Counted from the first letter of the stretch, positions 1,246-50,562 are shown. The stretch: DNA of 64,000 nt from Botryllus schlosseri (GCA_051294905.1 CM119372.1:8930001-8994000); one strand, 5' to 3'. Notes: a model not told the origin generated them from the sequence alone. Numbers and translations are program-made.

Positions 1246-4200
1246 ATGGCACAATCAGACCCATCACAATTTCGAAACTGGATCTTGGTTGGCAAGGGAC
1301 TTATCAGGCGGGGTGAATGCATAGCTAAAGGAGGAGAATCAGAAGTTTTCTGGTACGTTTACCTAGATTTTCAGCTGTGCGGCTTTTTTTATTGCAAATT
1401 TCTTCGTTGTAGGGGCAGCTTCAATGGCGGACATGTGGCATTGAAAGTGGTTGCTAATCGTACCACTTCCAATGAAACGAATGTACTTCAACTCCTGAAT
1501 CACCCAAATATCATAGACATACTTTACCATGTACGTATTTTTATTACGAATATTATTTCACAAATATAAATTTGCATATGTGAATACAGGAGATTGTCGA
1601 CACTCATACATATATCGTTTTGGAGCTTTGTCATTCTAACTTGAATGAGGTATGTAACTTTGTCTGTGTTATCGGATAATAATTGTCTTTAACAAGGTAA
1701 TCATATAGGTAGTAGGCTATACTGTGTACATATGTATTCGAAGTAGAAGGTAGCCATTGTCGGTATTCAAGTAAAAGTAGAAGTGATACCTTTCATAATG
1801 ATGATTAGCGGTTAGAAAAATTTCTTTCACTCAAGGCAGACAATGTTCGATGCGATATACAAGGCACTGCTGTCTATCAGTCTAGCACCCATATTGGCCT
1901 ACTGTAACAGTGTTTGATCGTGTTATTTGGGCTGTCTTTATTTTGACGCTTCCTCAACTTTTTCCTTCCCTTCATTGATAGTAATCGGTTCGCTGATCTC
2001 ATAAAATTTCTTCTGACAGTTCTATAGAACCATTGCCAATTAACTGAAACCAACCACCGTCTAGATTCATCTGTAGCAGTTAACCATACTACCGTGTGTA
2101 TAGCCTATAGCAATGCCCTTCAACTGCGGTACATAGTGCACCAAAATATGCATGCAACACCAGTACAAAAAGTGGAATAAATTTGGCAATATGTAGGTAT
2201 TGTTTGCTGCAATATTGAAGTTTTGTATTTCTAAAAGCCTATTTCAGTACAAAAAGGTACACAATAGTACATTATAAGCTTGTTACACTTAACAGATACT
2301 TTCAACGAAAACATTTGTTGACCAAAAACTTTGAGAAACATTTCAATGCTGAACAGAGTGTCACATTAAACCTCTTGATGGGGGCTGAGGAAATGGATTA
2401 AAAAAACTCGAAAACGTTCGCAGAAAAAGAGTTCTTGATGGTGGGGTCGGAATCTGCCATCTTACGTATCTAATGAAAGCAGGGAGAGAGCACCTCGTTT
2501 CACTTCTGTAATTACATTGCAAAACAACTTTATTTCTTTGAAATATGAATTTCTGTATCTCTCGCGGCTGTGGTTCTGCTTGGTAGTGTCAGAACTCATT
2601 TCTACTGTCGCTGTGGCAACTGCTGAATCTTAGCTTTCCATCAAGCCATCACCGAAAGATTTAGCTAGCTGTGTTCACGAGTTATTAGGTAAAAAACTGA
2701 GATGACTACTTTGGGGCATATTTTGTGGAATTATTGTGCATTTGGGACGTAACAATGTAACATACCTCACTCAATACAACTCTGGCGTGTGACACGCGAT
2801 TTTGCCACTAGTCATCAACGTAGTTCAAACGAGTTTGTGGTATAGACAGTGATTGCTTTCCCGAGGGATTACACATATCTATTATCTACCGCCTCTACGC
2901 TCACTAAAACGATAAATATGGAGTGGCAAAGTAAAATCCGGCTTCGAAGCGGGCACCGCCACCAAGAGGTTAATGCCAGTTTTTGTATTTTACCACTTTT
3001 CGTTGATACGGGCCTACCACAGAAATGGAAGAATTGATGGATTTAAGATCGAATTTTGGTATGAAAGTATAATTTAAAGAGACATCATATGCTGACTTTT
3101 GGGTGCAGCTGTTATATCCACGGAACATTTTTGTGCTTCTTCAAATACCAACAATGTATTTGTGCAAAAAAAGGTTTTTCTTGTTTGTGTTGAATGAAAT
3201 CCCGAAAGGGCGATGGATTAGGGGAGTATCGGAGAAAAGATATACAGTAGCCTCGTTGCTATTTTCTCATGTTCTTTTGAATGCTCTTTTATGACACGTG
3301 ATATTGAGCCTACTTGCAAGCAGCCTGTAGTCATAATCGAACTCTCGCACTGGCACTGTATATAGCACTGGCAGCATTAATTGATGTGATGATTTTTCAT
3401 ATCCCTTTTGCAAACACGGTGCATGAGTTCGTCATAATAAGGGTTCTGAAACCAAAAATGGTCAAAGAGAGCACTGCCCTATGATATAGCATAGGGGCTA
3501 TACGCTATAGGTCCCTCAGTAGGGGTTTGACATAGGACCGTGCATATACCCTATACGCCTATACTGGTCCGAGATCGATCCGACAAAGTTTAGGAGTTTT
3601 TCGAAGCAATATTTGCATCCATGCAAATGCTTTTCTGAAATACAAACGCATGCAATTAGTAGGCAACAGTGTATATTGATTATAGCTTTTGAATTCTGTA
3701 GAGTGCACCAAGATTTTCCATATGTGAATCCACTGGAAAATGAAGGCGGATTTATTTTTAAACTAGAACTAATCAGCAATTTTGATTGGCATTTTTGGAT
3801 TCAGCGTATAAAATTTTTTCAGCATTCAGCATCCATTTATTAGGGCTAAATACATATGTATATCCACTAATACAAGAATCAGATCAGCTTGCTTGTGTTG
3901 ATGAACTTTAAGGTACGGTGTAGTCGGTGTACAGTATAAGATCCACTTTCGCACCTATACTATAACAATTCGAGTGGAAAGAAATAGCCAATTTGAGAAA
4001 CAGATCTAATTTCATTCGCACATCAGATCACCAGCTTGATGCAATGTCACCAGTAGGAGATGTCATGTCCATTTGCCTTGCAAATTAATACATTTCTGTG
4101 TGGTGCACTTTTGATTGTCGCAAATTGAACGCATTTCCTCTAACCGAGAGACGAGATTCCAGCGCATGGAGAAATCTTTAATATCGGGGTCAGACTGTTA

Positions 4201-7200
4201 ATCTTGTCTCCCTTCTAATTAAAATGTGTTATTAGTTTGCTCACATAAGCAGCAGCATGTAAACGGAAATATCTTATGAATTATTTTTTAGTTGTAGGCT
4301 ACTATTCACCAACTAGTTTTGGAAGATAAATGCCTACGTAATTGTGGCTATGCCACTTACCAAAAAAAGTATGCACTGTTACCCAGCATACCTACGTCCG
4401 GCGCCTATGCTCTCTTGAGCTTTTCCTCTCAATATTTGAAGTTGTTATGCAAATGTTTTAGGATTCCTGGTAGACCAGTAACCTTGTGGCATCGGGATGC
4501 TACATTTCTCTTTTGATGATATTAATGTTAATCCATGTCTCACACAACTTCTTAAGAGCGAAGATCTTATGTGTTTAGTATGTCCTAAAGAGAGAGAAAG
4601 GCAGTTGCGAAATAAGTTTGACTCCGGTGAAAGTTCTCAAGCAGATTGTTGCAGGTGTTTACTACCTGCACAACGGTCAAACATATTTGACAGGTAAGTC
4701 TACTTGACTATATTTACTGTCCATCATTATGGAAGTGGGAGATAACTTTTTCTTCTCATAATCATATTCAAGCTCTCATATTTATTAATAATTAATTAAG
4801 GGATCTGAAATCACATTTAACTGGCTGTACATTTAGGTACCTTACATTTAGATGAGACAAAATCCTCATGTAATCCTTTCCACAACTAAATCTGCCATAT
4901 TTGCAGTAACATATACATTCCACCTAAGTCTCCTTCCTATAGCAGTAAAGATACCAGACATGGGCTGATTAGGCTACTTCATCACTGCAATATATTACGA
5001 TTACTTCTGAATTACAGCAAAATCTCGAAGTGGTCGATTACGATTATATCGAAAAGTAATCTCGAATACACTTATTTTGCATCTTAGAACTTGAGCCTTG
5101 AACACATATCTGAGTATAACGATTGCGATGAGAAGGCCATATCAGAGGACAATTTCATTTTAGCTACAACCCGCGCTAACATGGTGCATGAGCGGTTGGC
5201 TATAGCGGCAGATTCATATGTTGATTATGGTAATGAATTGCAAAATGACGATTGGTGCCCGTTTGAAGTAATGCCTTATGAGAAAATGATTAGATTAACA
5301 TAAAATTATGACATAATTAACCGATTGGCATCAGCTGCCATTTTCAAAAAATTTTACTTCATTTTTCACTGTAACCAAGGTGTCGTTCGATTCAAAATAT
5401 CAACGCGCAACCGATTGCGCCATCCAAATCGCTACCGATGTCGTGTCTGATTACTTATTAGAAGAGCAAGCCAAAAACACGTTGGTTGGGAACAGACATG
5501 CTAAATTGCGTACTTTATGAACCTTAGTATAGGTATTCGACGACGATACAGTCTGGTCTGTTGTATAGGCTCAGAATTCATCGTTCTAGAGAGCCCTGAG
5601 TCAACGGTCTACGTCTAGCAGACGCTAATTTCTAATCAAAACAATACCGACCGTTTTGGTCAGCTCGCGGCAGGCCTCCGAGAGAGTGAGTCATGACGAG
5701 TGATGCGCGGCGCGCGTATGGTAACTTGTAAGGCTTATAACTCAAACTGTGTGACCCTATATTAGTCATTTTAGTATTCGTAGACGGATATTTACAGTCC
5801 TTACCATAATGATTTACTGCAAATGCTTATCATTACTACAACGTAAGATATGATGTACGACAGCTCTTTGTATACCCAGACGCACGCTTTTGCGTAGGTA
5901 TAATCGCTCAGTATTATTGTATGTATTCCGAATTATACTTTACCATTAACCGTTATTTAGAATTATATAGGCAACAACAATTCACAGACACAATCTATGA
6001 AGGTTTATGGCTATTAGAACACGATATATTTCACGTTATGTGCGTGTATTCAACCATGTGCTTGAAGCTGGTACGGTAGTCTGACGGAATTCGCTTCCCG
6101 GTTTTCAAATAAAACCTTGAGCGGTATAGAACTAACTAGTATAGGTGCTTTAGCAAAATATATACAGAAACTGACAATCGCTATTCATAGCAACAAACTA
6201 CAGCTAGTTATGATGAGTAAAACCAACTAAACGACAGTGTATATGGCGGGTATGAGGAACGCGCGTGTCTGCAAAATGATGCTTCGGCAGATATTTTTGT
6301 CACGCGGCCTATCACATAGCTTTTGATCAGCTTAGATGTAACTAATGTCAGATATGAAGATACGTGTGGACTTGTATGGACACTAGCTATTCACATAATG
6401 AAACAACTATGCCCGAAGACGGCTAGAACGAAACATACAGAACGTTATCTGACACAGTGTATTTTGCAACATATTTATCTACGGTGTTTGATATACGATT
6501 TTGATGTCTTCGATATAATTAATATCAAATAACAATGTATTAATGAACTTGTACGAACAATATCTATTCACAGAAATGAACAGCAACGACCTAGCACGAT
6601 TAATATGTAATATATCGTGGTTTCAATTACGGTACTCTTCTCTCGTACCGGCATGTCATTAATTAAATGTAACTATTTGTAGCTAGGTACATTGCTGATT
6701 ATCATCCTCTTGCGATGTAGTGGTGTCAGGTGTTTATTGATAACCTGACATTAAATATTATGGTTGATCCTTCAATCATACTACTACGTTGAATATCTAT
6801 TTACTACTTTGCGGATAATTCGTTTCACAATGATGTAATAATGAACAGTGGATATTGACAATCCGACGCATATGCTGTCAATAACCAGATAAAAATTCGC
6901 ACTGTTCCTTGTTCTCGAATGTTCAGTTTATGTCATAGCCCTCGTACAAGTAAAAAGTAATCGTTCTTTTACAAATAGATATGTGAAATAATGGATCACG
7001 ATTACAATTAAATCTGATTTTTTTCGAAAGTAATCGATTATGATTAATTTAAAATGCTGTAATCGCCGTAATCGATTTACAAATCACTAGGGAAAGTTTT
7101 TGCAACTATTTTAAAGCTTCCGGCAGCTTCCTAGATACTCAGAATATATGTGGCATTGTGTTTTAAGCCGTTTGTAGGAATTTTATATTGCAACTTTTTC

Positions 7201-10200
7201 GTATTTTTCATACAACTTTCAACGGCAAGTATTGTACAAAATATAAGAGAGTGATTTAAAAAACATGCTATAAAACAATTTCTTCTACGGTTCTTGGTTT
7301 GACTCGGTTCGGTTTATTAGCAATTTTTATCAGTTCAATACACCACAAAAATTGCGATACAATGAAAATAGGAAGGATCTATTCTCGTAGATTGGCATAT
7401 TAAAGAGCTACCGGTATGTGGCGGATTAACTGCATATCAATGTCATCCATGACGCAACAGTTGGCTTGCAAGCTAGAAGTTCGGCAACCCCAGCCAAGCA
7501 CGACAGTGCCAGAACTAAATTACACGACGATGTATGTCTTGGCTATTGGTCAAGCCCGCGCAAATGGAAATAGGTTGTGTCTAGTCTTTCGAGGTCAAGT
7601 TAAACTGTGTGTTTATAAAAAATGCATTCGTTATTTTGCAAGTAAGAAGCGATATCGTTGATATCTGTTAAGATGACAGTCTAAGTTAGTAATGTCATTT
7701 TCACTCCAAGTAGTATTTTGAACTTTGAATCTTAATATAAATGTATGTATGTATGTGAATAAGTATATAAATGTAGGCTATATATGCAAATAGATTGCTT
7801 GAGTCATTGGCGGATACGGCGTTGATGTTTTATCAATCAATCAATTGTCAGGCTATATTTTCATCTGCCCAAGACACACACACACAATGCACAGTAGGGT
7901 TGGGACTTCGGGATCAAATTTCAAATCCCGGGATCGGGATTTCCCAGGATTTTCGCTCCTCAATCCCGGGAAATCCCGGGATTGGCAAAGTAGCAAAATG
8001 CACTTACAAGCTACACAAACAACATTTATTCCTTGTAATATTGACGCAAAAACATGCTTCCGTGAATACGAATGAAACGCAGCGATCGAAAGCCGCCCGG
8101 ATAATGAGCGTTTAAATCGATGTACCGCCTGCTTCGTCTAGGAGTTGATTTGTCCAACGTGATCGAAATACGTTCATCATTCCATAACATTGCCATAAGC
8201 TCTTCTTCCACACACTTGCGCATTTTTTTCTGTGCTCGATCACGAAGTCCCGAACCCGTTTGTGACATCTTGGCAAGTTATAGCCGTCAGCCTTGAAGGC
8301 CCGACGAATTCGCTCACTTTGGAGCAATTTGTTTAAATGCTAGCCCGTCCACAGCAGTTAACTGGCTAGGAAGTTCATCGAACCAAGGATTATGCGATTT
8401 ATAAAAGAAATAATATTTCTTTGACATGCCCGATTGAGTCATGCGGGTTGATTTAATTACTATCATGTGTACGGACCTTAAATGCGTTACCAGTCCATTT
8501 GTGCTATACCAGTGGTTCCCAACCTTTTTCGACTCATCGTCCCCTTATCAACCTCGACACAAATTTTTGCCCCCCATGCCCTATCGCCCCATATTTACAG
8601 ATCCGAAGAAGAGGACATATAAACGGGAAATTCAGTCACCTAACTACTTTGATCGCCAAAGAATTGAGTAAATAAAAAGGCAATTTTTCCGAGTAGGTTC
8701 TCCAAAAACCGGTTTCCGCCGTTAAGTTGACCATTTTTTAGTCAACTTTGGCGTCGTATGCAGAATAAGCCATGTTCACGTGCATTTTTTGGCCGTGTTG
8801 ATTAAATATATCTCACTGAACGTCCTGAGATTTTCGCCCCCCAATCGCCCCCTTGTTTTACAAAATCCCCCACTATGGGGCGATATCGCCCACGTTGGGA
8901 ACCGCTGTGCTAGACCTTGAAGCTTCCAAAACGTCTTGACACAAGTTACATTTGGCTTTTTCTGTAGATTTACAAAACAAAAAGTTTTGCCACACAACTG
9001 ATTTTTTCGTCGCACTGACATCTTCAAAATTCGCTATTATCCCGGCCTGTATTTCACCTCCACAGCACCGTCTTTGCAACGCCCCGATACTGAGTTACAC
9101 TGCTACGATCCGTAGACTACGACGGGAGTGATTGTGCAGTTCATATTATGCCATAGTTGGTTTTATTATCATATAATTGTGAATTGTTTTAGACCAGTGG
9201 TTCCCAAGCGGTGGGGAATTCAATGGTTTCCGGTGGGGAATAGACGCATTTGTTCAAAATTATATACACGACAGTCTACATATTCACGGAGAGAAATGCG
9301 CAATTACCGTTACCAGTTAACTGCTCTGGAATGTATGTATCGAAAATTATATTGCGTGTTGTTCACAAAACCTCATTTTTAACTCTGTATGGCCAATGGT
9401 TGCGTCACAAACACATCCAGCACGACTAGTTTAACGTGAAATAACGCTTTCGCGAAATTTTGAGCATTACTGGTATCGGTTCACAATACGTTTCACGTTG
9501 CAGTTATAGGCGATTGTCTTGCGTACTGGTGTTGTGTGTCTTGTGAAGTCAAACCAGCAAATAGCTTCTGTGTGATGACAAAAGTGCTGGGGCGAGCTCG
9601 AATTGTTATTTTTTTGAAATTTACGCCACTTTTTCAAATTTTTTTCGCGCTTGTTGCGCGATTTAATATCGCCGAATATCTGATTATTGGGTATCCTTCC
9701 CCCACGAAAATACTTGGAATTTATAGAAATGGAGACTTCGGCGGCGACCATTACTGCGCCATGACGCACCAAGGCATATGAAGTTATAGGCCAGGGGTGG
9801 GCAAACTTTTGAGCTCGCGGGCCGCATTCAACATCTGAATCCATTCGCGGGCCGCACCAAAACGCAATATTGGTATTTGATCAGATATGAAGGACATGGC
9901 TCTTATATATATGCTTATTTAAAACAAACCAAACATTGCTTTGACGATATCGTACACGCGTCAGAAACAGTGGCGAGATTGTATAATCTGGTCGACCTCA
10001 ATAACCAATGTGTCAAAACTATAGTGATGAAAGTCGGTTGTCCCGATTCTTAGAACAGGATTGAAATTTAAATCTATGAGCAGCGAACTGTTCATAGATT
10101 TACTAATTCAACTTTTGGTTTAGTTCCAGGACACATAATGCTGACAGCATCATAACCATGTTAGCAACAAACACGCTTCTACTGTGGGTAGATAAAATAT

Positions 10201-13200
10201 AAATACCCTAATTCTCCGCATACAGAGAAAGAATCGGATAGTTTGATGGCATGAAAGATGGCGACTGTGGATGAGAGATTTTTGAATATGAAATTCATAC
10301 TGAATACAAAGCAATTACTGAAGATTAGATGTAAATCGCGAGGAGCGCGAAAAAAATTTCATTCCAGCTCAGCTTCACGGCCCCCTTCAGATGCTTTCAC
10401 GCCCCAATGTTGGGGGGAGGGAGGCGAGCCCCCAGTTTGAGAATCACTGCCTTAGAATCATCATGTTGAAATATACTAATAAAAAGTTGCATTAATTCGA
10501 TTTTTAGTAATCATTTTATCAATATTTTTAACAAGTTTCTTTTCACTCTCGCGGGCCGCACAAAACGGTGTTGCGGGCCGCATGCGGCCCGCGGGCCGTA
10601 GTTTGCCCACCCCTGTTATAGGCCATGTAACATGCAACTCCGAGAAGTGTACCAGAACGATCAGCAGAATCAGCAGATCAGAACGACCTTGGCCAAGAAG
10701 GAATACCCTTGTGGTGACCCAAAACTTCGATATATATACAATATACATATATGCTTAATTGGCTAAATGGCTGGCGCCGAATGTTCCTGTCCTAGCGATC
10801 TGAACCCGACAGGACAAATGCCATCCCGCAGGGAAAAATTATTTCCCAGTTAAGCAGTACCAATTTGAAATCGTGTGTGCCTTTTAGTTTTAGCGATTTC
10901 AATATCTTTTGACATAGCAGATATAGGAGGTCGCGAAATATATCATAATGTAACGAAGTCAATATACCAACGGGTCCGCTCGAAGATGTTTGATTCTTAT
11001 TTAGGGGTCCTACCTTTTCCAACACACCTCACTCAGCTCTACCGGTAAATCTGATTACGTGAGCAGAAAGGAAATAAAAATTTACTAGCAAAATATATGC
11101 AATTCCAGATCGTATTGGCCGATTCAAACACGAATGATATGAATTTTTCGCGCTTCGTGCGTTTAGTCGAAATAAGGCAACGCACCAAACAGTAGAGTTC
11201 AGTCGAAGTAAGGCGACGCACTAAACAGTAGACCCCATGAAGTTGATAAGTTGCAGGGATAAAGCGTACAGGCTCAGCGGGGCTGAGGGGGTTCTGGGGG
11301 CCCAAGACCAACGCCGTTTTGGCGGGGCTCAGTCAGTCAGTTTTATTTATACTTTCATCATTTCAACTCACCGCAAAACTGCGATACAATGAAAAATAGG
11401 AAGGTGTCGAAACAACTTGGAGTAGTCTTTAAGATCAGAAACCCACCTTGGCTGACAAAGAGCTGTTACGGTCCTGGTGGGGAATGAAGGCTCGGAATAA
11501 ATCTGAAGTGGGGAATGAAGACAAAAAGGTTGGGAATCACTGTTTTAGACAATCAGCCGAGTTTGTAACACTGCTTTATTACCAAAATAAGAGACATGAC
11601 GCTACGTAAGCCTTGGTAGATTCTGTTTACAAATCCCGGGATTTCATTGCGATTAATCCCGGGATCGGGATTGCTTCAAATCCCGGGATCGGGATTTCCC
11701 AGGGTCCCAACGCTAATGCACAGTGATGCTATATACAAGACACACAATGCGATGTAATGAGCAGACAGAGGGATGCCGAACGACCAACTAGTTGGGGTCT
11801 CTTGAACTGCCATCCACATCGACCTATTGCCCGATGTCACAGTCTTCTTTGATGCTATTCTTTCTTTGTCGGTCCTTTTTAGAGCTATTTCTTGCTCCCT
11901 TTCTTTCTTTATCGGGTCTTATTTTACTGGGCTTTTTTCACTGTAAGAACAATGACACTGGGGAGGAGGACCCCAGAATAACCTCCGATGGCGGGAATGG
12001 ACCCTGGGCCGCCTGCTTGGATCGCGCCCACGCTCACTGCTATGATGTTGTTTAAATTTGAGGTGCTTTTGCATTTCGCAGACACCCAGGCGCTACCTCC
12101 GAAAATTACATGTTCACTGGGTCACCTTTTTCAAGCTATCGATTTTGTTAGAGTCGCGAACACTAAGTTTTGCTGCAATGCCTTGAATCAAGTTTGCAGA
12201 CCTAGGGAGTTTGGGGTGTGATATTTGACTTGTTTTGAGGGTGGGTGGGGTGGATTATCAATTTTCCCTTTGGCTTTTTTCGGCGGTCTCGCCAGACCGT
12301 CCATGAAATGGGAAAGAACCAAATTTGACCGCTCTGCAGGAGCCGACAGCGAAATGCTGTCATGTAGGTTTCAAACCTAAAGAACATAAAAATGTATGGA
12401 TAATGGATTGAACAGCGAAGAAACAAACCGAACAAGCAGATACTCTGCAAATCTTGAACTGTGTGATTACACAACGGAACCTTCCGAGTATCTCATACCG
12501 TAATCGTTTTAAAAAACTTATGCGTAAATGCAACTTTTGTTAAAATTGAGTGCAACTTTCTCACAATTTTTATTGCAACAAAAACTTGCCCTACTAATCA
12601 CGATTACCCCATGTCTGGAACATGCTGTGACCAAATGATGGTACAGCAGTAGCTGGAATGAGAGCTTACTCATTTACATTACGTTATATTTAGAAAATCT
12701 CAAAGCTCATGTGGTATTGCTTAATGAGCATCCAGATGAATGTTGTGAAGATGTAGAGATGTAGGAGACTGATCTAGCGCAACGCGGGCTGTCGCTTAAA
12801 GACGCCCACGACCGCCCACGTTGGAGACGCTTAACACGAGCCCAAAACTGATTATCTCGATGTTGTTTTTGTCTCCTGTTTTCTTTTGCCCTTTTTTATT
12901 TTATCTAATTGAAAAGTCGATATATATAAAATGTAGGCTGTATTTCATATATCGGGTTTCAAAGAGTGTGTAGATATATAATTATTAAAGTTATATACCT
13001 GTTGCTCTTGTTGTGTTGCGTTTATATAAATTATCAACATATAAAACACGACAATATCATATGTTGATTAGCATTGCTTATTTTGCAGTTCACAGAGATT
13101 TGAAACCTTCGAACATTCTCTTTGTATTTGACGAAAGAGGTCAGAAATGGAGGGTGAAAATATCTGATTTTGGTCTCAGTAAAGACATTGATAGAAGCAA

Positions 13201-26572: not shown

Positions 26573-27266
26573 TAACGTAGTGCACCTGATGCTGCAGTAC
26601 TAAGTAATTCAATTTTGACGCGTCATCCTTGTATCATGTACTGTTTTTGATGTTTGTGCTAACGCTATAACTAAAAAAATGTTCCTAATAGTTTTCCTCT
26701 GTCTCATGCTCAAATCATCCATCTCAATCTACTATTGGAGCAGCAATTTATTCATTTATGGTAATTCACCAGCCTGCTCATGATTATGCTCATGAAATAC
26801 TATCAATTATGAAAAGTAATCGATAATCACGAATGCATTAAGTACTGTTCTAACTACATTTTAGAAGGAGTATTGGTTTTAAATTTTAGATTCTAAAATA
26901 TGTTTTAAAATGTGTTAGGTAACTGAATGAGTTGTGTGCACGGATGAATTCATTGCTTTAATACAATTATATTGTGTTATATGTAGATTTGATCACGTTT
27001 CAGCATTTAACCCTAGCTATTGTAGAATCGAATGAAATTGTATTTCTCTTGTATTTGCGTAGAACCAAATGAGATATCCTCTGTCAGCTTAAAGCCTTAT
27101 TAGATTTATATGTAGCTATATGTACGAATCACCTTTTAAATTTAATTCATCTATATAGGCATTTGTAAACTGGTTTATTCAAACCAGGTTGTTGTTACTA
27201 TGAGTATCAAACAGATGGAGAGTCCGTAAACTAGTGTAGTTTTAACTTATTTACTTGACCATTGCA

Positions 27267-30200
27267 ATGTCTGTCAAATTGCGTGCGGTGGGTGAACACA
27301 AGGTCATCAAGATACCCCGTCTACCAGACTATAAAGGAACATTTGCAAAAGTTTACTTGTAAGTAAACGTTTATAATTTTCCCATCACTCTACTAACAGT
27401 CATTGTTCAACAGTGGTCGCTTTGATGAGCGGAATGTCGCCGTAAAAAAAGTGGATGAAGATGATAAATACTCCAAAAAAGAACTTGAATATCTGCGAGA
27501 ATTTCAACATGAGAACATTGTCCGCTATCTGTTCATGGTAAGCTGCTTTATGGTAACGATTTTTATGTAAGTATAATTCATCCCTGATGTTTTAAGGATA
27601 CTGATGAAAATGACGCATCATTCTATATTGTGCTTGAGAAATGCGACTGTACTCTGAGGGAGGTTCGTTGACAATTTTGGTGCACATTTATTTTATACCG
27701 GAGCTCTGCCTTGAGAGTGAACCAACGAAATTCTATAGTAACGTGTTCGTGTTTGTTTGTCCTGTGACATTGGATTCCGTTGGTACAAAATGTTCATCTT
27801 TGTAAAACAAAATAGCTGGTCAACTATTCACATATTTGTTCTCAGTGATGTGATGTCTTGACGCGTGCCATTAAGCTATGCCCACGGAGGTAAAAGTAGC
27901 ACAATTAAGCTAGTATCTGCCACTTTTTTTACTCAACTTGTAGTTTCTTGAGTGTTCTGCCTCAGAAAAGCCTGCCAATACACCTTATCACTTCGTTTCA
28001 AAAAGACTGCCGTGTGTACTATCATACTTTGATGGTTTGTCGATGGACCCCTGAACTAATAAAACTGACTCCATCTAATGATTGCCCGCACCTGCACTTT
28101 GTAATAAATGGGTATGAAAATTTAAAAGTAATATTATAGTCTATCAAATATTGAAGGTAACAAAAAAATGAAAATGGTACACTCAAGAACCATAGGATTA
28201 GTAACAATTGAATAGAGGTAATATAATAACGAATATAGGTACATTTCACACAACAACAATGATACAATCCAGAAACAAATCAAATGAGAAGCCCATTGTT
28301 GTCTCTTTTTGCTCTAAAACACTGCTGTCTGGTCATTAATAATTATCCCAAATATGGTACTTGTAACTGTGCCACACAACCCTGTGTTGCATTGTTGGAT
28401 CACAGATATTACAGATGAAAAACATCAAACTAATAACATTGATTGAAGTGATGCATTGTCACTTTGAAAGCATTACTTTCCTGGATTAAAAGAGCTCTGG
28501 ATGCCCTGAATTGTTGAATGATGTAATTATATTTGAAGAAAACTGAGATTAATTGTAATTGCAGACTTTGTTTTTGATGCAATTGTGATTTTCATGTAGA
28601 GGAATGTGACATGCATCAACGCCAAAAGATTGCTCTTCAATTCGAATCATTAACATTACCTGGTGTTACGAATAGAATCTTTCAATTACAATAAATTGTG
28701 AAACTGGCGCTTTACAAGTTGGCCAGAAACCAATCCCATTTAATGACAGCAAAATCTTCCGAATTGATACGAAAATAATCATCTTATTGAAAATATAAAT
28801 TCTGATAAAGCATCAGTCATTCTTATCCAACTATCAGCGCTTACTAGCGAACTACAGGCAACAATTGATTGCCTGTTTGGTAGGTGTTAGCAGTTTATTG
28901 CATGCAATATCGTGTCCTTTATTAAGATGCAACAACTTGTTTGTGTTGATATTCATTCCGGAGTTCAGGTTACCGTAATTTAAATACATTATTATATCGT
29001 GACTATGCTGAGCAGTGCATTTATGATTTCGTTAGTTCATCAATCGGAAAGAACACACCATACCGCCGCTTGAAATATTATGGCCTCTTACTACTGGCTT
29101 AGCATATCTGCACGAGGAAAAGAACTTGGGTTGGTAAAGAGTAGTCATTACTTATTTTTGGCTAATGTATCTAATCGGATGTGTTGATCCAGTGCACAGA
29201 GACCTGAAACCATGCAATATTTTGATGATTCAAAAAGACAGACACTGGATTCCTAAGATATCAGATTTTGGTATAAGCAAGACCATTGATAGGAACAAAA
29301 CAAAAGTAACGCAAACAGGAATCAAAGGAACCGTAGGTTTTATGTCCCCAGAGGCGTTGCGAAACGAAAAAGTGGATCAAGTAGGTGGTGGGATTGGGAT
29401 TGTAACAATCTGGGAGCTTCTAAGGGTTTGTTGCCATTTAGCAAGCTGATATATTCTCTCTGGGAATCATATTCTATTATGTGTTGAGTCATGGGGAGCA
29501 TCCATTCAAATCAGATGAGCTCAAGTTGGAATTTGACATACGAGAAGGGAAGGTCAGTCCCGAAATAGACGATCTAGAAATGGATGCAAAATCTCTCGTA
29601 CAAGCCATGATTGCTCACGACCGCAAAAGCAGACCGAAGATTCTTGAAGTTATGGCTCATCATTTGTTTTGGGATGGCGAAAAAAAGATGAATTTCATTC
29701 AGGTTTCCTCACAATATACGAACCAAACGGTACATTATTTTCATGTTCATTCTTTTTTTGCAGGAAGTTTCGGATATAGTGATTACAGACGAGTACAATC
29801 CCATCTTGGCGCCCATACTCGAGGCAAAACAAGAATATGTAGTTGGCGATTGGAGAGCTGTACTCTATGCAGAATCTCCGATAATCGAGCAGGTTTTTGA
29901 AAAAATGAGAAATAAGAAGCAGAATAACGGGGTGTGCGACCTGCTTCGAAATATCAGGAATCTGGTGAGTTTATGCATTTCAGAAATACAGTTTGCTTCA
30001 GGGAAGTTGGAAACGTCATTAAATTTATATATTGTAATTTGCTACTAAAATTACTCGTGTGAAGACATTTCCTGGAGTAAAATGAATTTTCCGCTACTAG
30101 TGATATATTTTCATCAAAGACCATAGTGACATGAAGAACCGCAATCCTTTCGAAATTGCTGTCATTTGCATGAATAATGTATATGTTACAGATAATAATT

Positions 30201-30931
30201 ATCGTAATTTTTAATACCACATTGCTGAAAACAGCAAACCTTGTCCTGCCGGCTAGATGTTGTTTTAATTTCGACCAACAATCCCCTGAATTCACCAGAA
30301 CAACATCTGACACGTAACTAAAATTTGGCTCCACTTGATAGGTTATTTTAATTCATATCATGATAATTTTCCGCACTGCACACTCGTTGATATCATAACC
30401 AATGTTCCCTCTAATTTTGTAGAGTCTGCGCACACTCACCAACTCACTGCGCAGACCCTTGAACAACAGTGCGTAACGACTAAAAAAAGGTCATCACTTC
30501 GGATTTTTTGTGCGCAACTTAGATATTCAATGTGCCGAGACTGTGTCATCACTGCGCATTTGCGCACGTGCGCAGCTTAGAAGGAACATTGATCATAACA
30601 TTGTTTTATGAAAGCCATCGTTATTCATGTAATTTGCTTCATAATCATTCATTTTCCATCAAATATATTGACGTAACAAAGAACTGTAACTGAATTGTAC
30701 AAAGTAGATTTCTGATGATGTATATGAAATTATTTGATAAATATTCTTGTGTCTTTTCCAGAAAAACCATTACAAAGAAAAGCCAGACGAATTCAGAAGT
30801 CTGCTCGGAGAAATGCCGGAAGGAGTGATGGAATTTTTCACCACTCGCTTCCGCAAACTAATCCCCTTTGTGTATGAAGAACTACGGCAAAAACGTGTTG
30901 AACTTGGCCTAGAAAAGTACTACATATACAA
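27267..30931 (+). other. Gene B kinase and KEN domain exons
   Basis: [81 protein letters not shown]. Confidence 0.93.
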
Positions 30932-33900
30932 GTACAATAGGCTGCAATGATATAGGATAATATTTACGGTAACCATGTTCCCAAATCCTACAGGGGCCAC
31001 ACAGGACTCAACTTGAGTCGAAGCCCACCAGTGCCAGGTTAGTTTTTATCTTATGCAGATGACATGACTGACACAATGTCAAACTGTAAACTTCTCAATT
31101 CAATTCAAGTAGAATCTAAAAAGTTTGAAGCAAATTTTACAATTTGGTTTAGTCAAATCCAATGTGGGTTGGATGCAATTTATTATAAATGTTCTAGTGA
31201 TACTCTACTGAATCGTATCACACACATGTTTTAGACTCCAATTTGCATACTAGCTTGAACTGCATAGTTTCGATCGAGTCTAGATTCTCGTTTTTGTTAC
31301 TCAGCTGTACAAAGCACGGGCTATAACAACTTGGAAGAATGCTCTACTGACAAACTGATACTACGAGAGTACCAAAAAGAGCTTGCAGAAAAAGCCATCG
31401 AAGGAAACAACTCGCTAATAATCGCTCCGACAGGTGAATGTATATACATTGTAGGAATATAGATTGATCCTAGTGAAATATGGATTTATAGGATCTGGGA
31501 AGACTGCTGTAATGGCAGGAATCATTGAAAATCATATCACCAAATCTACTGCCGGATGTATTATATTTCTTGTGCCGAAAACTGCCCTCGCTCACCAGCA
31601 GTATAAGTTCTTGCAGAGGTGGGGAATATTGTGTAGTTGCGTAGTACAATTGAGTTTGAACAATAACGATTTCAGGTATCTTCCTTGTTCTGTTGACTTT
31701 ATTATCGGAGAAACTGCACCCACTGTTCCACCGGGGCAGAAGATACAGGAAAGCAAGGTCACCGTTTTGACTCCGCGAATTTTAATTAACGAGCTTAAAA
31801 GGTAGGTGTTTCATAACAGTGTCTTTGTGTAGATTTGGAGCAATGGGATTGCCGAATTAAACGTGGCAAACTATATTTGATGGTAGTTATGTCACATACA
31901 GTTTAATACCATTTTACTTTTGATATTGAATGTATTGTGTTACGTTCTGCATAGGACCTGCGATAGCATTCTGAACTACAGCAATGCTATTATTCAGGAA
32001 AGACAACGAAAGATACGTTTCATTCGAGGATATATCACTACTCTTATTTGACGAATGTCACAATGCAAACAAGAAGCATGATTTCAAGCAGATTCTCGAG
32101 CTTTTTGTGGACTACAAGCAACAGAACAATTCCAACGGTTTCCAAATCCAAGTAAATGTCAATTTCTTTAGAGCATTGATCTTGACGACTTCGAATTTGG
32201 AGCAGACTGGCAACCTTCCTCCTAGATTGTTGGTGTAACGGCATCTCCCGGAATAGGTCGGGCGAAAGACAGAAGCAAGGTTAAAAGCAATCTACTCGAA
32301 TTGATGGCTAATTTGGATGTCACGATACCGCCAGTAACTGTAAAAAGGAATGTGGAAGAGTTGAAGAGGCATCAAAACGAAATTTCAGAATGTTAGCAAA
32401 TGCAATTTTCATTGTCTCATTAAGCAGCGGACATAATACAACATTTATTTAGACTACGTATCGGTTCAGACAGAATCTGAGTTTGGAAATGAAGTCGTTA
32501 AAGTTATGATGGACATTGAGAACAGCGTCAAAATGCTGAATCTACGGCACAATGGTAAAGGTTGGATTGATACGCATTCTGGCGTTCGATGACAACATTG
32601 TCTTTTAATCTAGCCGAACATCTCAACAAGATGCCAAAAAATCGATCGCATCAGGCATACGAGAACTGGACAGAAGCATTGAAAAATCACGCAAAGCTTA
32701 ACATGAGCGACGAGGACTCCAGTAGAATCCTTTTCACATACGCGGAGCACCTCAATGTGACTACAGCACACCAATTTATCATAAAGAGGCTTATCGCAGT
32801 TCATTATTTTAGATGTATAACTTCCTACTTCAATTGAAAGATCTTGTGCCGAACGCAATGACTCATGCCAATAAGATGGTGAAATTCTTGGAGGAAGGCT
32901 TCGAAAACAGAGACTTGTATGCGAAAAACAAGGGTAAACTGACAATTAGCACAATACACATGTATTTGCCATTAACATCGTTACTGTCTCCCAGCTCTGC
33001 TGTTGAAAGCTGAGAATGTCAAAGTTCCGATGCTGGTGAAACTGTTCAGCATAATTAAAGAGGAATTTCACACGAATGAAGAGGCCAGATGCATTGTCTT
33101 CGTGAAAAGGAAACTTACGGCGACCAGCTTGGAAGATTGCATGAAAAACGATGACGAGCTTGCAAGATTAAACGCAAAATGTCTGATGGGCACCCATGGA
33201 GCAGGAACGGATGAGGGTATTACAGTTCACGCCTATTGCGTGAATATAGGAATATTCGCTGTTCATCGGGTAGGGATATAGCCTTTTCAGAGGTGATCAA
33301 AGTAGTCAGCGTTGCTACTCAAGTAGAAGTGGCAGTAGCAATTCGCCATGCATGACAAAACTACTTACGAGCTGCATATATTTAGCAGTAAATCGGACAT
33401 GTTTACTTTCGTCATTACAACCAGCCCAAAATGAGTAACGATGTTACAAATTGGTGCAATTTTCTGTTTCGGTTACTGTAATATATAGGGGCTATTTCAT
33501 GCCATTCAAATGAAAATTTCACTCTGTTTAGTGATGACAAAAGTTACACAAGATGCGATCATCCAAGCTTTCAGCAGCGGAGACACCAAGATTATCATTG
33601 CCACTTCTGTAGCCGAGGAGGGCATTGATATAAAGAAATGCAATCTTGTAATCATGTATAATTACGTGACTGGGGAGGTCGGAAGAATACAGCGTAAAGG
33701 TACTGAAATTACTGATGGCAATGCATTTTTTGATGGAAAACAAGCTGAAATATTGTATGTTTTGGACATTTCTATCGAGGCTGTAATGTCACGTCTGCAG
33801 ACTTCGCATGCAGAATTATTGCGTAAAGCATTTGCTATCACTCCTTTTGCTCAAAAAAAGTATTGAAATTGCCTATGGCAATGATCCGATCCAAGCAGCA

Positions 33901-35611
33901 CTAAGCATTCTGGATGTTCATAACTCTACGTTGGAAATGTGGAAAATACATTTTCTGACACACATAATTTTCAGGTAGAGGAAGAGCATCTGGCAGCAGA
34001 TCAATACTTATCACTTCGGTTGGCAGCGATCATACGAAGCAAGAAAAGGACAATCTCATTTGTGCACAAGCAACTGACCAAGCAATCAAGGACGTCAATG
34101 CAATGTCTTCGTCAGAGCTGCAGCAAGAGGCAGCATATATACTCTGAATCACATCAAACATTGTACACAACTTGATGGTATTTCGTTCAGATAAAGAGAA
34201 TTCAGGACAAAGATAAGGCTGAAAGGAAAATGATCTTGGAGATGACCCAAGCGAAAAAGGGCTCTCCTTTAGATTGGGAAATACTATGCGTCAAATGCAA
34301 AACGTTCCTAACTGCTGCAGATAAGCTTGGGCATATCGATGATGTTGTAAGAGTTTGACATACATACCATATGCACGCTGTGTATTAGAAACAACTGCTT
34401 TTATTGCAGCACATAGCCGTACAGGACCCTGGGTTTCATAATAGAGTCTCAAGAATTGAACAAAAAAGCCAAAAGGGTCCCGACATCCAAGGCACTGCGG
34501 ATTTGGTCTGTGGCAATCCGAAATGCGGGTAGGTTTGTATTAACGAACCGGTGCATGGTTTACAGCAGGGGTCACCAACACGCGGCCCTCGAGGTCAAAT
34601 TTTGCGGCGCGCGACCTGATTTTAGATTTCGAAAGAACGCAAAGTAACGCATTGTGAAATGCTAAAATTTATTTCAGTTTAAAAATATTGACGTTGTTCA
34701 AAATCAGCTATTCTATTGTGCTCAACATCACCATTCCTCACTAGCTGATACGGCTTCAGCTATGGTAATAGCACTCCATGGAGGAGAATTAGCTCATATG
34801 AATGGGGGCATTGCCTTGGCGTGTAATGGCCCAGACACTGCTAAGACCAAGTCGCTTATAAAACGACCTAGGCTTCCGCACATGATCAAGCTATACTAGG
34901 AGATAGTTTTCCAGCAAGTACCGTGTCTACCTAACCCCAATGTCAATTATTTAGCCACTGAAAAGTGTTGTCAGGTTTTGTGTGCTGCTTCTTAAATAAG
35001 ATATTAGTTCTATTGTGGTAACTATGCCTGCCGCCCACGTTAGAGAGCACAGTGTTGTATGTGCTATGGTTGTTAATCTATGTGGCCTAATTTATCTCGT
35101 TATTGAATTCATGCGCCCCTCAGCCTATGCGAAATTCGATATGTGGATTGTGACCTGCGATCCCTGGTTTACAGGCAGACTTGATAGGCTCTGGAAAACA
35201 TGCAACGCTAAAAGGAATAATCTAAAACTGATACCCCAATTCATCAAAGGATTCATTTTATTCGCATGAAATCAAAATCTATTTTTAACAATCTTACAAT
35301 ATTGGGATTCCAAATGAGCCGTTGGAAATATTTGGCAATGTACTGATTTCAATACTGGTTATTGCAGAACCAAAGTAGCACTGGAGATGGTGTATCACCA
35401 ATCTTGCTACATTATACTGTCATTCAAACGAATAATTCTTCGGAACAAAGACGGGAAGTTTTTGGAGCCCAAGAAAAAGAAAAACTTACCCTTTGCAGTA
35501 ACGAGAAGTGTAGAAGACATGGAAACAAGCGAAAGCAACTCAACTGATGGGAACGAGTCTTTCAATAATGATGATCTTATGGAGAGTTTCGAGATCAATC
35601 AAATTTTCTAG
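27267..35611 (+). CDS. Gene B: paralogous IRE1-like kinase-KEN RNase fused to RIG-I-like helicase and CTD (spliced, about 1123 aa)
   Basis: Exons: 27267-27358, 27414-27537, 27597-27662, 29036-29129, 29193-29380, 29442-29702, 29764-29964, 30762-30931, 30994-31037, 31305-31433, 31492-31618, 31676-31801, 31998-32151, 32226-32391, 32453-32554, 32614-32756, 32813-32933, 32995-33216, 33532-33699, 33975-34129, 34191-34346, 34410-34528, 35368-35611. They sum to 3372 nt with compatible phases. Motifs: [97 protein letters not shown]. Confidence 0.88.
30400..30591. mobile_element. Short hAT-type MITE
   Basis: CAATGTTCCCTCTAA / TTAGAAGGAACATTG, perfect TSD atcataac. Confidence 0.85.
31305..35611 (+). 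other. Gene B RIG-I-like helicase and CTD exons
   Basis: All SF2/RLR motifs Q and I-VI are present. Hel2i has QAYENW. The CTD has two Cys pairs, CVKC and CGNPKC. Confidence 0.95.
34566..35166. mobile_element. hAT MITE
   Basis: CAGGGG...CCCTG ends, perfect TSD gtttacag. Confidence 0.75.
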
Positions 35612-50200: not shown

Positions 50201-50562
50201 TTATAGAGTAGCGTGTATTTGTTATTTGAAATTACTGAGTCTTTATTGTTTCTTTCATGCCAGTTTTGCCCAGCGGTTAGCATATACTTATCGTTGCATG
50301 TGGTGCCACATTCCATGTGTGATCAAGTTGTATTCTTTGCTTGTAAACTTCGATGTATTTTAATGCTATGCTACACCACCGAAACATTTTGACACATGTT
50401 TGTCTTAGCATAGTCTATCAATCGTGTGACGTATTTCAATGAAATATTGCGTTGCCAATGCTGAGCCTTTTTCAACAGCTTGAGCTCACGAAGCAACTGG
50501 AAGATTACCAAAAGGATGCCGCTGACTTCGATGACTTTGTGCGGCAGTTGGAAGCTTTCTAA
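41234..50562 (+). CDS. ATG13: Autophagy-related protein 13 (HORMA domain, disordered region, LIR, C-terminal MIM)
   Basis: Exon 41234-41386 reads MQQPEISNTERKEMENLTKLLCLKTAQVIVQGR and 43783-43949 reads FNPAIKDIPDV..VEISLQT..LEVW. Exon 44012-44149 has SRATPAYKLSRNQ and 44219-44365 has GSIGTPTGTFTMAVAFR. Later exons give the LIR-like EDYLMVEL (about 49960-49982), NPAF..DLCAFYK (50046-50168) and the last exon 50479-50562 ...DFDDFVRQLEAF*. These match human ATG13 motifs as I recall them. Boundaries of the middle exons are less certain. Confidence 0.93.
42392..43688. mobile_element. Tc1/mariner-pogo-type non-autonomous element in an ATG13 intron
   Basis: TIR CCGTAAACCGGGGTAAC / GTTACCCCGGTTTACGG flanked by TA, with internal GGGGTAACTTTGGAC repeats. 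Confidence 0.8.

Follow-up and report, generated by a model that had tools for sequence, protein, structure and literature searches.

Two neighbouring genes in a 64,000-nucleotide stretch of Botryllus schlosseri DNA (the window) almost certainly each encode, judging from their sequence, a single protein in which a kinase and a KEN ribonuclease are followed by a complete RIG-I-like receptor (RLR) helicase and a RIG-I-type C-terminal domain (CTD). The fused coding architecture is shared by two orthologous types, A and B, found in this genome and in at least two other sources, and the predicted motifs of the kinase, the HEPN nuclease, the helicase ATPase and the CTD zinc site are retained in both types. 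An earlier note on this DNA had proposed that the four modules follow in a single frame in both tandem genes, and our stop-free GT-AG models, with a short linker after KEN, agree with this; the two genes are tandem paralogues.

Structure of the two genes

We scanned 37 plus-strand ORF pieces across both genes against Pfam, exon by exon. Fifteen matched the families anticipated for such a fusion, in the right order within each gene (Pkinase, Ribonuc_2-5A, ResIII/DEAD, Helicase_C, RIG-I_C and RIG-I_C-RD), two gave chance-level matches below the Pfam cut-offs (FAA_hydrolase_N and E6) and 20 gave none.

Gene 1 (type A; plus strand, 1246..26572) was modelled by protein-guided spliced alignment, using the type-A orthologues P0152, P0275 and P0156 as guides. 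The model comprises 26 exons in the order kinase, KEN, linker, helicase and CTD, all introns being GT-AG, and encodes a stop-free protein of 1187 aa that starts at the ATG in position 1246 and has 52% identity to P0152 from Styela. Kinase exons lie at 1246-1352, 1413-1530, 1590-1649, 4579-4693, 13089-13315, 14860-14998 and 15237-15364 (Pkinase E 5e-15 on 12989-13360), and the last of them holds the end of the kinase, whose model includes the APE motif, and the start of KEN. The KEN exons proper, 15422-15613 and 15688-15863 (Ribonuc_2-5A E 2.4e-5 and 1.8e-11), share the motif IRNWAHHY, split between them, and the second ends at the donor ACAG/GTTACT. Three linker exons follow, at 15932-15965, 16131-16211 and 16278-16305 (acidic). 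The same chain was obtained with two of the three type-A guides, the first linker exon being a phase-compatible guess for which the remaining guide gave a different chain; the last two exons are similar to the linker in the orthologue from Styela, which is likewise acidic (Styela stretch DNDLLGLDDESISPA). The helicase exons span 16367..22440, with ResIII and Helicase_C matches, and contain the Q motif and motif I (16367-16459/17625-17751), DECH (18007-18145), TAS (20217-20382), Hel2i (20503-21386) and motifs V-VI of Hel2 (21997-22440). Bridge and CTD exons are at 24100-24250, 24311-24466 (CxxC), 26089-26216 (second Cys pair) and 26278-26572; the four cysteines are aligned, and RIG-I_C-RD matched 26264-26572 with E 6e-7.

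Gene 2 (type B; plus strand, 27267..35611) was modelled in the same way as 23 exons, all GT-AG and stop-free, whose reading frame opens with the ATG at 27267 and encodes about 1114 aa. The product is colinear with residues 5-1127 of P0001, to which it is 64% identical. Pkinase matches mark kinase exons at 27267-27358, 27414-27537, 27597-27662, 29036-29129, 29193-29380 and 29442-29702, the last comprising the end of the kinase and the start of KEN, and the model contains the kinase motifs VAVK, HRDLKPCN, DFG and SPE. KEN continues at 29764-29964 and 30762-30931 (Ribonuc_2-5A E 1.7e-5 and 9e-10), across which the motif IRNL/KNHY is read. The linker includes a 44-nt micro-exon at 30994-31037 (GHTGLNLSRSPPVP), with a good acceptor and a good donor, whose counterpart in P0001 is GHSGLDLSRSPSRP. 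The Q motif lies in an exon at 31305-31433, which lacks an in-frame ATG and has an in-frame alternative acceptor at 31284. Further helicase exons are at 31492-31618, 31676-31801, 31998-32151 (DECH), 32226-32391 (TAS), 32453-32933 (Hel2i), 32995-33216 and 33532-33699 (motifs V-VI), the helicase as a whole being assigned by DEAD/ResIII, RIG-I_C and Helicase_C matches and by its motifs. The bridge and CTD exons at 33975-34110, 34199-34346 (CxxC), 34410-34528 and 35368-35611 were placed by tblastn to residues 903-1127 of P0001, and the four CTD cysteines are again aligned.

The two halves are predicted to form one protein

The KEN ends (15863 and 30931) and helicase starts (16367 and 31305) given previously are splice sites in our models. 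The gap between them, put earlier at 0.45-0.5 kb, spans 503 nt in gene 1 and 373 nt in gene 2, that is, 0.37-0.50 kb. It was also said to hold no in-frame ATG, which is correct for gene 2 but not strictly so for gene 1, because the linker exon 16131-16211 contains two (16137 and 16146). Neither gap contains AATAAA or ATTAAA, or an unspliced ATG reading into the helicase exon, and the first helicase exon of both genes is without a usable start. Reading through the KEN donor leads in either gene to a stop within 6-10 codons (at 30948 in gene 2, when the donor at 30931 is unused).

Uninterrupted versions of the fusion were found elsewhere. P0001 (1130 aa, from a 3437-nt Logan contig) and P0156 (1203 aa, from a 3768-nt Logan contig) each carry all domains in one ORF, and these contigs are transcript-like, because the orthologous gene in the window has 22 introns. 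P0001 belongs to another species, since its best matches in the present genome are gene 2 exons at 55-74% identity. The Styela clava models P0152, P0002, P0274, P0275 and P0155 show the same domain order, and P0153 (583 aa), from the same species, spans the KEN-helicase junction. Additionally, two intron-less, uninterrupted ORFs of the B. schlosseri genome, L081 (1139 aa) and L082 (1161 aa), encode the fusion in one frame and align to residues 3-1092 and 7-1078 of P0001, respectively.

Splicing of genes 1 and 2 rests on models and relatives, so that two distinct genes lying head to tail, one for kinase-KEN and one for the helicase, might have been wrongly joined, a reading to which the ATGs in the gene 1 linker, the existence of solo kinase-KEN genes (see below) and the early stops after the KEN donor lend some weight. 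We consider it very improbable, given that the whole fusion occurs in two intron-less single ORFs of the same genome and on two transcript-sized contigs, that the gene 2 micro-exon is kept in P0001, that the first helicase exon lacks a start codon and that the trees of the two halves are congruent.

The kinase-KEN module derives from IRE1

Over their whole length, the first 380 residues can be aligned with the cytosolic part of IRE1 from human, mouse and yeast, which comprises its kinase and RNase (E 1e-50 to 1e-38). The module had been described as IRE1/RNase L-type; solved relatives and the tree agree with the first half of that label, an IRE1 derivation, but not with an RNase L-like one, as no RNase L appeared among the best 60 solved chains listed, where the best was IRE1 (E ~1e-50). 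PKR chains were weaker relatives, of the kinase domain (E ~1e-18 to 1e-19).

In all fused proteins the kinase is directly followed by KEN (Pkinase, Ribonuc_2-5A). The kinase starts at residues 14-33, and the roughly 20 residues that precede it indicate that there is no signal peptide, lumenal part or transmembrane segment. Pfam detected no ankyrin repeats in the fused proteins, which have no room for them N-terminal of the kinase, and no CARD in any of them, the N-terminus being occupied by kinase-KEN. As proposed earlier, the module thus sits at the position of the CARDs, since sister ascidian RLRs carry CARD_2 there.

Columns invariant among six fused proteins include K43, E55, H128-R129-D130, D151-F152-G153 and E180 in the kinase and R337, N338 and H342 in KEN; the glycine-rich loop of the kinase is degenerate in several family members. 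The RNase active site of IRE1 consists of Tyr (human Y892), Arg, Asn and His. The position aligned with the Tyr is Lys or Ser in all four fused proteins aligned, the IRE1-type rows reading R-[TS]-Y-[KR]-G, and the RNase chemistry may consequently be weaker or different. The HEPN motif R-N-[LW]-x-x-H is present in all nine fused sequences, including those of the diverged type C. According to a survey of HEPN domains, what chiefly determines the HEPN RNase site is Rx4-6H with a polar residue after the R (PMC3710099), and the fused KEN has this arrangement.

Across orthologous pairs, kinase and KEN are about as conserved as helicase and CTD (gene 2 against P0001: 67, 59, 68, 67, 75 and 54%). The linker, of 36-75 residues and often acidic, is poorly conserved and scores lowest.

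The helicase-CTD half is that of an RLR

In the second half, some 650 residues can be aligned with solved structures of RIG-I (E 1.4e-71), MDA5 (~4e-64) and LGP2 (~1e-57). Motifs Q, I (GxGKT), II (DECH), III (TAS) and VI are kept in all seven type A and B sequences, and GxGKT, DECH, TAS, the Q-R of motif VI and four CTD cysteines are invariant among six fused proteins. The Hel2i insertion (RIG-I_C, PF18119) was identified in P0001 (residues 653-749, E 8.7e-9) and in P0155 and P0275 (~1e-7); P0152, P0156 and P0274 gave no PF18119 match at the 1e-6 limit, and the Hel2i exon of gene 2 matched RIG-I_C below the cut-off (E 0.0078). RIG-I_C-RD (PF11648) matched P0001, P0002, P0152, P0155, P0156, P0274, P0275 and one gene 1 exon, and the CxxC and second Cys pair are aligned in nine of nine fused sequences. 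Certain lysines of the RIG-I CTD bind 5'ppp; in our reading of the alignment, the positions aligned with them appear not to be Lys in the fused CTD, so the ligand specificity may differ.

Phylogeny and family members

In the kinase-KEN tree, all fused rows and two solo tunicate proteins formed one clade (SH-aLRT 99 and 98), apart from the ankyrin-bearing kinase-KEN proteins of fish (SH-aLRT 98-99) and from animal IRE1, including the canonical IRE1 of the same genome (L084). The helicase tree likewise placed all fused rows in one clade (100), adjoining the CARD-RLRs of Ciona and Phallusia, and both trees showed the same A/B split. On these phylogenies, the fusion has a single origin. L084 retains beta-propeller matches (65-208) and a kinase (475-730), and the genome also keeps a CARD_2-RLR (L083), indicating that the fused genes are extra.

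Helicase motifs Q, I, III and VI are gone from both intron-less copies, which make up type C, and one of the two has HQD/NFG instead of HRD/DFG. Both copies are still open, with dN/dS of 0.41-0.44 in kinase and KEN and the lowest value (0.41) in KEN, and at least some members of the family therefore function with no ATP-driven helicase. Kinase-KEN also occurs as a solo gene in Styela (P0047), in Logan (P0051) and in the present genome (C3), so the module can act without a covalently attached sensor too. Identity between types is 37-41%, and the family is multi-copy and confined to a narrow lineage, with degenerate and truncated members. This pattern of tandem and dispersed, fast-diverging paralogues fits an immune gene family.

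Comparison with known systems

With RIG-I (DDX58), MDA5 (IFIH1) and LGP2 (DHX58) the fused proteins have in common motifs Q, I, DECH, III and VI, Hel2i and the four-Cys CTD, and among proteins without the fusion those nearest to their helicase are RLRs with CARD_2 from Ciona and Phallusia. They differ from RIG-I and MDA5 in having kinase-KEN instead of the N-terminal tandem CARDs, which LGP2 also lacks, and this replacement means that a MAVS-type relay is not implied; the CTD lysines with which RIG-I contacts 5'ppp appear not to be kept. The kinase K, E, HRD and DFG residues and the KEN R-N-x3-H-Y are also those of IRE1 (ERN1/ERN2), but the lumenal sensor and transmembrane segment of IRE1 are missing, its active-site Tyr is replaced and, whereas IRE1 senses unfolded protein, the sensor here is C-terminal and predicted to bind RNA.

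RNase L follows the same logic, a cytosolic antiviral sensor joined to a kinase-like domain and a KEN RNase switched on by self-association, and the R-N-L at the start of the type B catalytic motif resembles that of RNase L. However, its ankyrin repeats and 2-5A sensor are absent from the fused proteins, its kinase is pseudokinase-like whereas types A and B have intact kinase motifs, and it relies on OAS, whereas the fused protein would sense dsRNA directly. PKR (EIF2AK2) is likewise one polypeptide in which dsRNA-driven dimerisation activates an attached kinase, but through dsRBM domains, with neither helicase nor nuclease and with eIF2alpha phosphorylation as output. KEN itself belongs to the HEPN RNases and has their Rx4-6H site, and HEPN domains are often joined to sensor domains in defence systems (PMC3710099). 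The table of KEN fusions in that survey gives kinase, ankyrin, CCCH, ubiquitin and BRCT partners, an RLR helicase not being among them (PMC3710099).

A proposed dsRNA-triggered nuclease and its alternatives

IRE1 and RNase L become active when they dimerise or oligomerise, and RLRs multimerise on dsRNA. By analogy, each gene would produce a single protein of about 1100-1200 aa in the cytosol, consisting of the IRE1-derived kinase-KEN, the linker, the complete helicase and the zinc-binding CTD. The helicase-CTD would bind viral dsRNA, and several molecules side by side on one RNA would bring their kinase-KEN modules together, so that these pair or assemble into oligomers in the manner of IRE1 and RNase L. 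The clustered kinases, on binding nucleotide and/or trans-autophosphorylating, would turn on the KEN RNase, which might cut single-stranded RNA that is viral, host or both. Sensing and RNA destruction would then reside in one polypeptide, with no CARD-MAVS relay and no 2-5A messenger. We put the chance that dsRNA-induced clustering activates an RNase at about even, and an antiviral or RNA-surveillance role for the fused protein is probable.

RNA-clustered kinases could instead signal by phosphorylating one another or some factor downstream and set off a transcriptional or stress response, with KEN serving as a scaffold or RNA-binding surface of little or no catalysis. Every catalytic kinase residue is kept in types A and B, the active-site Tyr is gone from KEN and PKR shows that dsRNA can activate a kinase; we nonetheless find signalling of this kind unlikely, because R-N-x3-H persists in all nine sequences, type C too, KEN shows the lowest type C dN/dS even where one kinase has lost HRD/DFG, and the IRE1 kinase mainly serves its RNase. 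An IRE1 ancestry and the apparent loss of the RIG-I residues for viral 5'ppp specificity would also suit a housekeeping or regulatory role, in which the helicase-CTD guides KEN to structured cellular RNAs for site-specific cutting, as IRE1 cuts XBP1/HAC1 mRNA. This is quite unlikely for a family whose narrow lineage, multiple copies, fast divergence and degenerate or truncated members are unusual for housekeeping and typical of immune families, and whose helicase half lies among the RLRs, adjoining the CARD-bearing ascidian ones. Alternatively, the proteins might have no output of their own but draw RNA away from the CARD-RLR, or partners away from IRE1, and thereby tune those pathways, in line with the lost ATPase motifs of type C, the coexistence of canonical IRE1 and a CARD-RLR in the genome and the precedent of LGP2, a regulatory RLR without CARDs. 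Such a decoy seems improbable, since the enzymatic motifs of three enzymes have all survived in types A and B through at least a speciation event and an earlier duplication, more than a passive decoy would need.

Significance

Our literature search found no description of an RLR helicase joined to kinase-KEN. The earlier note likewise knew of no described protein of this kind. The architecture is nevertheless recorded in databases, where Styela clava RefSeq/UniRef models carry it under the automatic names 'RIG-I-like', 'DHX58-like' and 'ire-1-like', which hide the fusion. Kinase-KEN is known with two sensors, for unfolded protein (IRE1) and for 2-5A (RNase L), and the known output of the RLR helicase is CARD-MAVS signalling, LGP2 having none.

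Returning to the dsRNA-triggered nuclease, we tentatively suggest that stolidobranch ascidians possess a self-contained antiviral restriction protein, in which an RLR helicase reads dsRNA and, by crowding on it, directly licenses an IRE1-derived RNase of the same chain. In a chordate, this protein could correspond to OAS/RNase L and to the sensor-HEPN systems of bacterial abortive infection, while dispensing with second messenger and adaptor. The ATPase-dead, intron-less copies and the sensor-less solo kinase-KEN genes might be heteromeric partners, amplifiers or brakes of the same RNase assembly. The fused protein offers a simple test case for the induced-proximity model in both families. If the proposal is true, kinase-KEN would be a portable, proximity-activated effector, and a single chordate polypeptide would link the sensing of RNA to its destruction, which bears on RNA-virus defence in tunicates, the sister group of vertebrates.

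Two tandem genes join a kinase-KEN module to an RLR helicase

The window has a GC content of about 0.39 and is eukaryotic in character, with coding sequence in short blocks separated by introns. When 37 ORF pieces were scanned against Pfam exon by exon (15 matching the families listed here, two giving chance-level matches below the Pfam cut-offs and 20 giving none), both tandem genes of the + strand showed the domain order Pkinase, Ribonuc_2-5A, ResIII/DEAD, RIG-I_C, Helicase_C and RIG-I_C-RD, the RIG-I_C (Hel2i) match being weak and coming from gene 2 only. Ribonuc_2-5A corresponds to KEN, the domain shared by IRE1 and RNase L. Genes were modelled with a protein-guided spliced aligner that permitted GT-AG introns in all three phases. 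Gene 2 (27267-35611, +) has 23 exons and a stop-free product of about 1114 aa, and gene 1 (1246-26572, +), modelled with type-A guides, has 26 exons and a stop-free product of 1187 aa. A model of gene 1 guided by the type-B protein P0001 contained spurious exons of 1 nt and 16 nt, and was superseded by the type-A-guided models.

Gene 1, in its long introns, and the region downstream of gene 2 carry interspersed repeats, in pairs at 9969-10235 and 24785-25051 (copies 90% alike) and at 18586-18759 and 39063-39236 (84% alike), as well as a 29-nt tandem repeat (array at 18674-18761). The repeats are probably transposon fragments that swelled gene 1 to 25 kb, as compared with 8 kb for gene 2. Further downstream lie ordinary neighbours, an ATG13-like exon (43983-44585, +; PF10033, E 1.8e-8) and a large exon of an SNX9-type SH3-PX-BAR sorting nexin (52731-54041, +).

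The junction coordinates named in an earlier note, made from the sequence alone, coincide with splice sites of our models. The chain from KEN to helicase runs 30931 / 30994-31037 / 31305 (+) in gene 2 and 15863 / 15932-15965 / 16131-16211 / 16278-16305 / 16367 (+) in gene 1, spanning gaps of 373 nt and 503 nt, respectively. Neither gap contains AATAAA or ATTAAA, or an unspliced ATG reading into the helicase exon, and if the KEN donors are left unused the frames hit a stop 6-10 codons on. The assertion that no in-frame ATG lies between the two modules needs amending for gene 1, where the modelled linker exon 16131-16211 has two in-frame ATG codons. The first linker exon of this gene is a guess based on compatible phase only, one of the three guides having given another chain. 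The helicase exon of gene 2 has two in-frame acceptors 21 nt apart, 31284 and 31305, with the stronger polypyrimidine tract at the downstream one; their alternative use would add or remove seven linker residues. Among the fused proteins, the linker comprises 36-75 residues, with up to 32% Asp plus Glu.

Fused proteins from other sources

Using one gene 2 exon as query, a single protein was found, P0001 (1130 aa, on a 3437-nt Logan contig), containing Pkinase (residues 24-265), Ribonuc_2-5A (272-385), DEAD (438-604), RIG-I_C (653-749), Helicase_C (791-905) and RIG-I_C-RD (984-1092) matches. Its contig is nearly all ORF, and thus transcript-like, because the window gene has 22 introns; it comes from outside this genome, since nothing there matches it better than the gene 2 exons, which are 55-74% identical. 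Gene 2 is colinear with residues 5-1127 of P0001, including the 44-nt micro-exon at 30994-31037 ('GHTGLNLSRSPPVP' versus 'GHSGLDLSRSPSRP'). P0156 (1203 aa, on a 3768-nt contig) is a second transcript-like fused contig from Logan.

Database models of Styela clava also contain the fusion. P0152, P0002 and P0274 form a group 95-98% alike; P0275 shares 49% identity with P0152, and type B is represented by P0155. One 25.6-Mb record carries three of the fused models, labelled 'RIG-I-like', 'DHX58-like' and 'ire-1-like', names that hide the fused architecture. The 'ire-1-like' P0153 (583 aa) was considered as a KEN-terminated isoform and rejected, as it spans the KEN-helicase junction, continues via the linker and terminates within helicase domain 1. 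When 390 collected proteins were searched with profile HMMs, 146 matched KEN, 137 matched helicase-CTD and eight matched both, these being exactly P0001, P0156, P0152, P0002, P0274, P0275, P0155 and P0153.

A full-text search of the literature, including passages of PMC9334734, PMC9505182, PMC3710099, PMC8455134 and bioRxiv 10.64898/2026.05.30.728932, turned up no account of the kinase-KEN-RLR architecture. The KEN architectures tabulated in PMC3710099, a survey of the HEPN superfamily, comprise kinase, ankyrin, CCCH, ubiquitin and BRCT combinations, with no RLR helicase. The earlier note knew of no described protein of this kind, which agrees with the literature covered here; in the databases, the Styela clava models already exist.

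Paralogues in the Botryllus schlosseri genome

Within the 495-Mb assembly of the species, two further loci, designated type C, encode the entire fusion in one uninterrupted ATG-to-stop ORF each: L081 (contig C14, ORF 1489-4908; 1139 aa, aligning with P0001 residues 3-1092, E 2.5e-85) and L082 (contig C7, ORF 1480-4965; 1161 aa, aligning with residues 7-1078, E 2.2e-84). Being uninterrupted, these ORFs make the fusion there independent of any splicing model. Pfam matches in both comprise Pkinase, Ribonuc_2-5A and part of DEAD. Helicase motifs Q, I, III and VI are gone from both type C proteins, and in L081 the kinase HRD/DFG has become HQD/NFG. Both proteins retain R-N-x3-H in KEN, as well as the cysteines of the CTD. 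Their dN/dS values (NG86, point estimates) were lowest in the kinase (0.44) and KEN (0.41); those of the bridge (0.97) and CTD (0.80) were close to 1. They also share a conserved C-terminal tail with a partly hydrophobic end (…NAVLAGVR.LAIHLFEFL), missing from types A and B, that might form a helix for docking to membranes or proteins.

Both the kinase-KEN and the helicase-CTD tree place the type C pair with type A (support 96 and 93), with a very long stem leading to its helicase half. The pair may represent retrocopies of spliced type-A mRNA, i.e. a fossil of the fused transcript. This reading is weakened because the canonical IRE1 (L084, contig C16; 1162 aa, with beta-propeller matches, kinase at 475-730 and KEN at 736-859) and the canonical CARD_2-RLR (L083, contig C6; 946 aa) of the same genome are also single uninterrupted ORFs, indicating that intron-less forms of normally intron-rich genes are not rare here.

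Contig C3 holds, at 46372-51858 (-; loci L091, L093 and L095), a type-B-like kinase-KEN gene that has introns and keeps its motifs intact; its kinase C-lobe is 55-61% identical to that of P0001. The gene was rejected as a third fused one, its frame stopping about 20 codons past KEN; no helicase exons were found within 20 kb downstream. Sensor-less proteins resembling its product, Styela P0047 (407 aa) and Logan P0051 (427 aa), fall inside the fused clade. Also present in the genome are over 25 single-ORF kinase genes, whose products of about 280-320 aa show 30-38% identity to the kinase domain of the fused proteins. Many of these genes cluster on C3, near 16.1-17.6 Mb and near 20.1-20.3 Mb, and others lie on scattered contigs, a pattern that suggests intron-less kinases have expanded in this lineage.

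Origin and distribution

In the kinase-KEN tree, fused proteins and the solo tunicate P0047 and P0051 formed one clade (SH-aLRT 99; 98 in a second tree that left out the long-branch P0113 and P0160), separate from animal IRE1, including that of B. schlosseri, and from ankyrin-bearing fish kinase-KEN proteins. In the helicase-CTD tree, which retained every row selected among the 39 best P0001 matches, the fused proteins formed one clade (100) adjoining CARD_2-bearing RLRs of Ciona and Phallusia. Both trees gave the same split into type A (gene 1, Styela P0152 and P0275, and P0156; 47-52% identity) and type B (gene 2, Styela P0155, and P0001; 53-64% identity), with 37-41% identity between types. 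This congruence indicates a single fusion event that preceded the A/B duplication, the duplication in turn being older than the split between this species and Styela.

Among the best 150 matches of P0001 in 1.84 billion representatives, one contained both halves, 17 KEN only, 129 helicase only and three neither; fused proteins were three of 120 and four of 120 among the matches listed in two word-index searches. The only organism named for fused database proteins is Styela clava (Stolidobranchia, Styelidae). The library of representatives is incomplete, because the P0001 query recovered neither P0001 itself nor P0155, and absence of the fusion elsewhere is therefore weak evidence. A protein-atlas cluster search gave a best score of 0.82, below the 0.9 level, with the architecture in no cluster. 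Metagenome contigs were searched with a fused alignment, the search running on generic kinase patterns, and the 80 kept loci, matching query residues 1-270 only, were dismissed as unrelated kinases. Of the sequencing runs containing words sampled from the window, none was recorded as RNA; 20 contig-type runs contained 0.09-0.40 of the sampled words, and four raw-read RNA runs exist under the same species label.

Signs of function and a candidate mechanism

The N-terminal half matches the IRE1 cytosolic kinase-RNase from end to end (E about 1e-50), and no RNase L chains occur among the 60 matches listed for it, so that of the earlier designation 'IRE1/RNase L-type' the IRE1 part stands and the RNase L part does not. 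The closest matches of the C-terminal half are RIG-I (1.4e-71), MDA5 and LGP2, in that order. Six fused proteins are invariant at the kinase Lys, alpha-C Glu, HRD, DFG and APE Glu, at the KEN R-N...H-Y motif, at helicase GxGKT, DECH, TAS and motif VI, and at the four CTD cysteines. Orthologous pairs are about as alike in kinase plus KEN as in helicase plus CTD, the linker being least conserved. According to PMC3710099, the RNase site of HEPN domains is determined chiefly by Rx4-6H together with the polar residue that follows R; this arrangement is kept in nine of nine fused sequences.

Several features stand against full competence, as judged from the alignments: the position of the IRE1 active-site Tyr is Lys or Ser in four of four fused proteins aligned, some members have a degenerate glycine-rich loop, residues other than Lys align with the 5'ppp-binding Lys residues of RIG-I, and type C has its motif losses. 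A two-copy complex prediction of the kinase-KEN module scored 0.01, and was counted neither for nor against.

The fused protein is an RLR in helicase, Hel2i and CTD but lacks CARDs; its kinase-KEN resembles that of IRE1, without the lumenal and transmembrane sensor or the active-site Tyr; and it shares the logic of RNase L without its defining ankyrin/2-5A sensor. RLRs multimerise on dsRNA, and the RNases of IRE1 and RNase L turn on upon kinase-KEN self-association. We favour, at roughly even chances, a mechanism by analogy in which dsRNA-loaded helicase-CTD clusters kinase-KEN and switches on the KEN RNase. With helicase-CTD units bound next to one another along dsRNA, neighbouring kinase-KEN units would be able to pair, owing to the flexible linker. 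Once such a pair is stabilised by nucleotide binding or trans-autophosphorylation, its KEN RNase would cleave RNA.

Signalling by the kinase only, to which the invariant kinase columns and the altered Tyr position are both pertinent, is a less probable reading, and the kept Rx4-6H site counts against it. An RNA-processing, non-immune role, which the IRE1-like kinase-KEN would suit, we consider rather improbable for a multi-copy family that diverges fast (37-41% identity between types). A decoy or regulator, for which the motif losses of type C might be cited, seems slightly less probable still, given the motifs invariant in six fused proteins. A modelling artefact, for which the in-frame ATG codons in the gene 1 linker might be cited, is very improbable, as five separate lines of sequence evidence agree on the predicted fusion of the window genes. 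Our comparisons demonstrate the fused architecture and its conservation, and clustering on dsRNA is the mechanism we favour for it.

Other unusual kinase-KEN architectures were seen in P0200 (TPR repeats; 1079 aa, ENA) and P0260 (a PF18738 domain; soft coral Xenia). Evidently, recombination has joined the kinase-KEN unit to a variety of sensor-like domains. Since the genome of B. schlosseri also holds a canonical IRE1, a CARD_2-RLR and a solo kinase-KEN gene, the fused genes are additions to these systems, not replacements.
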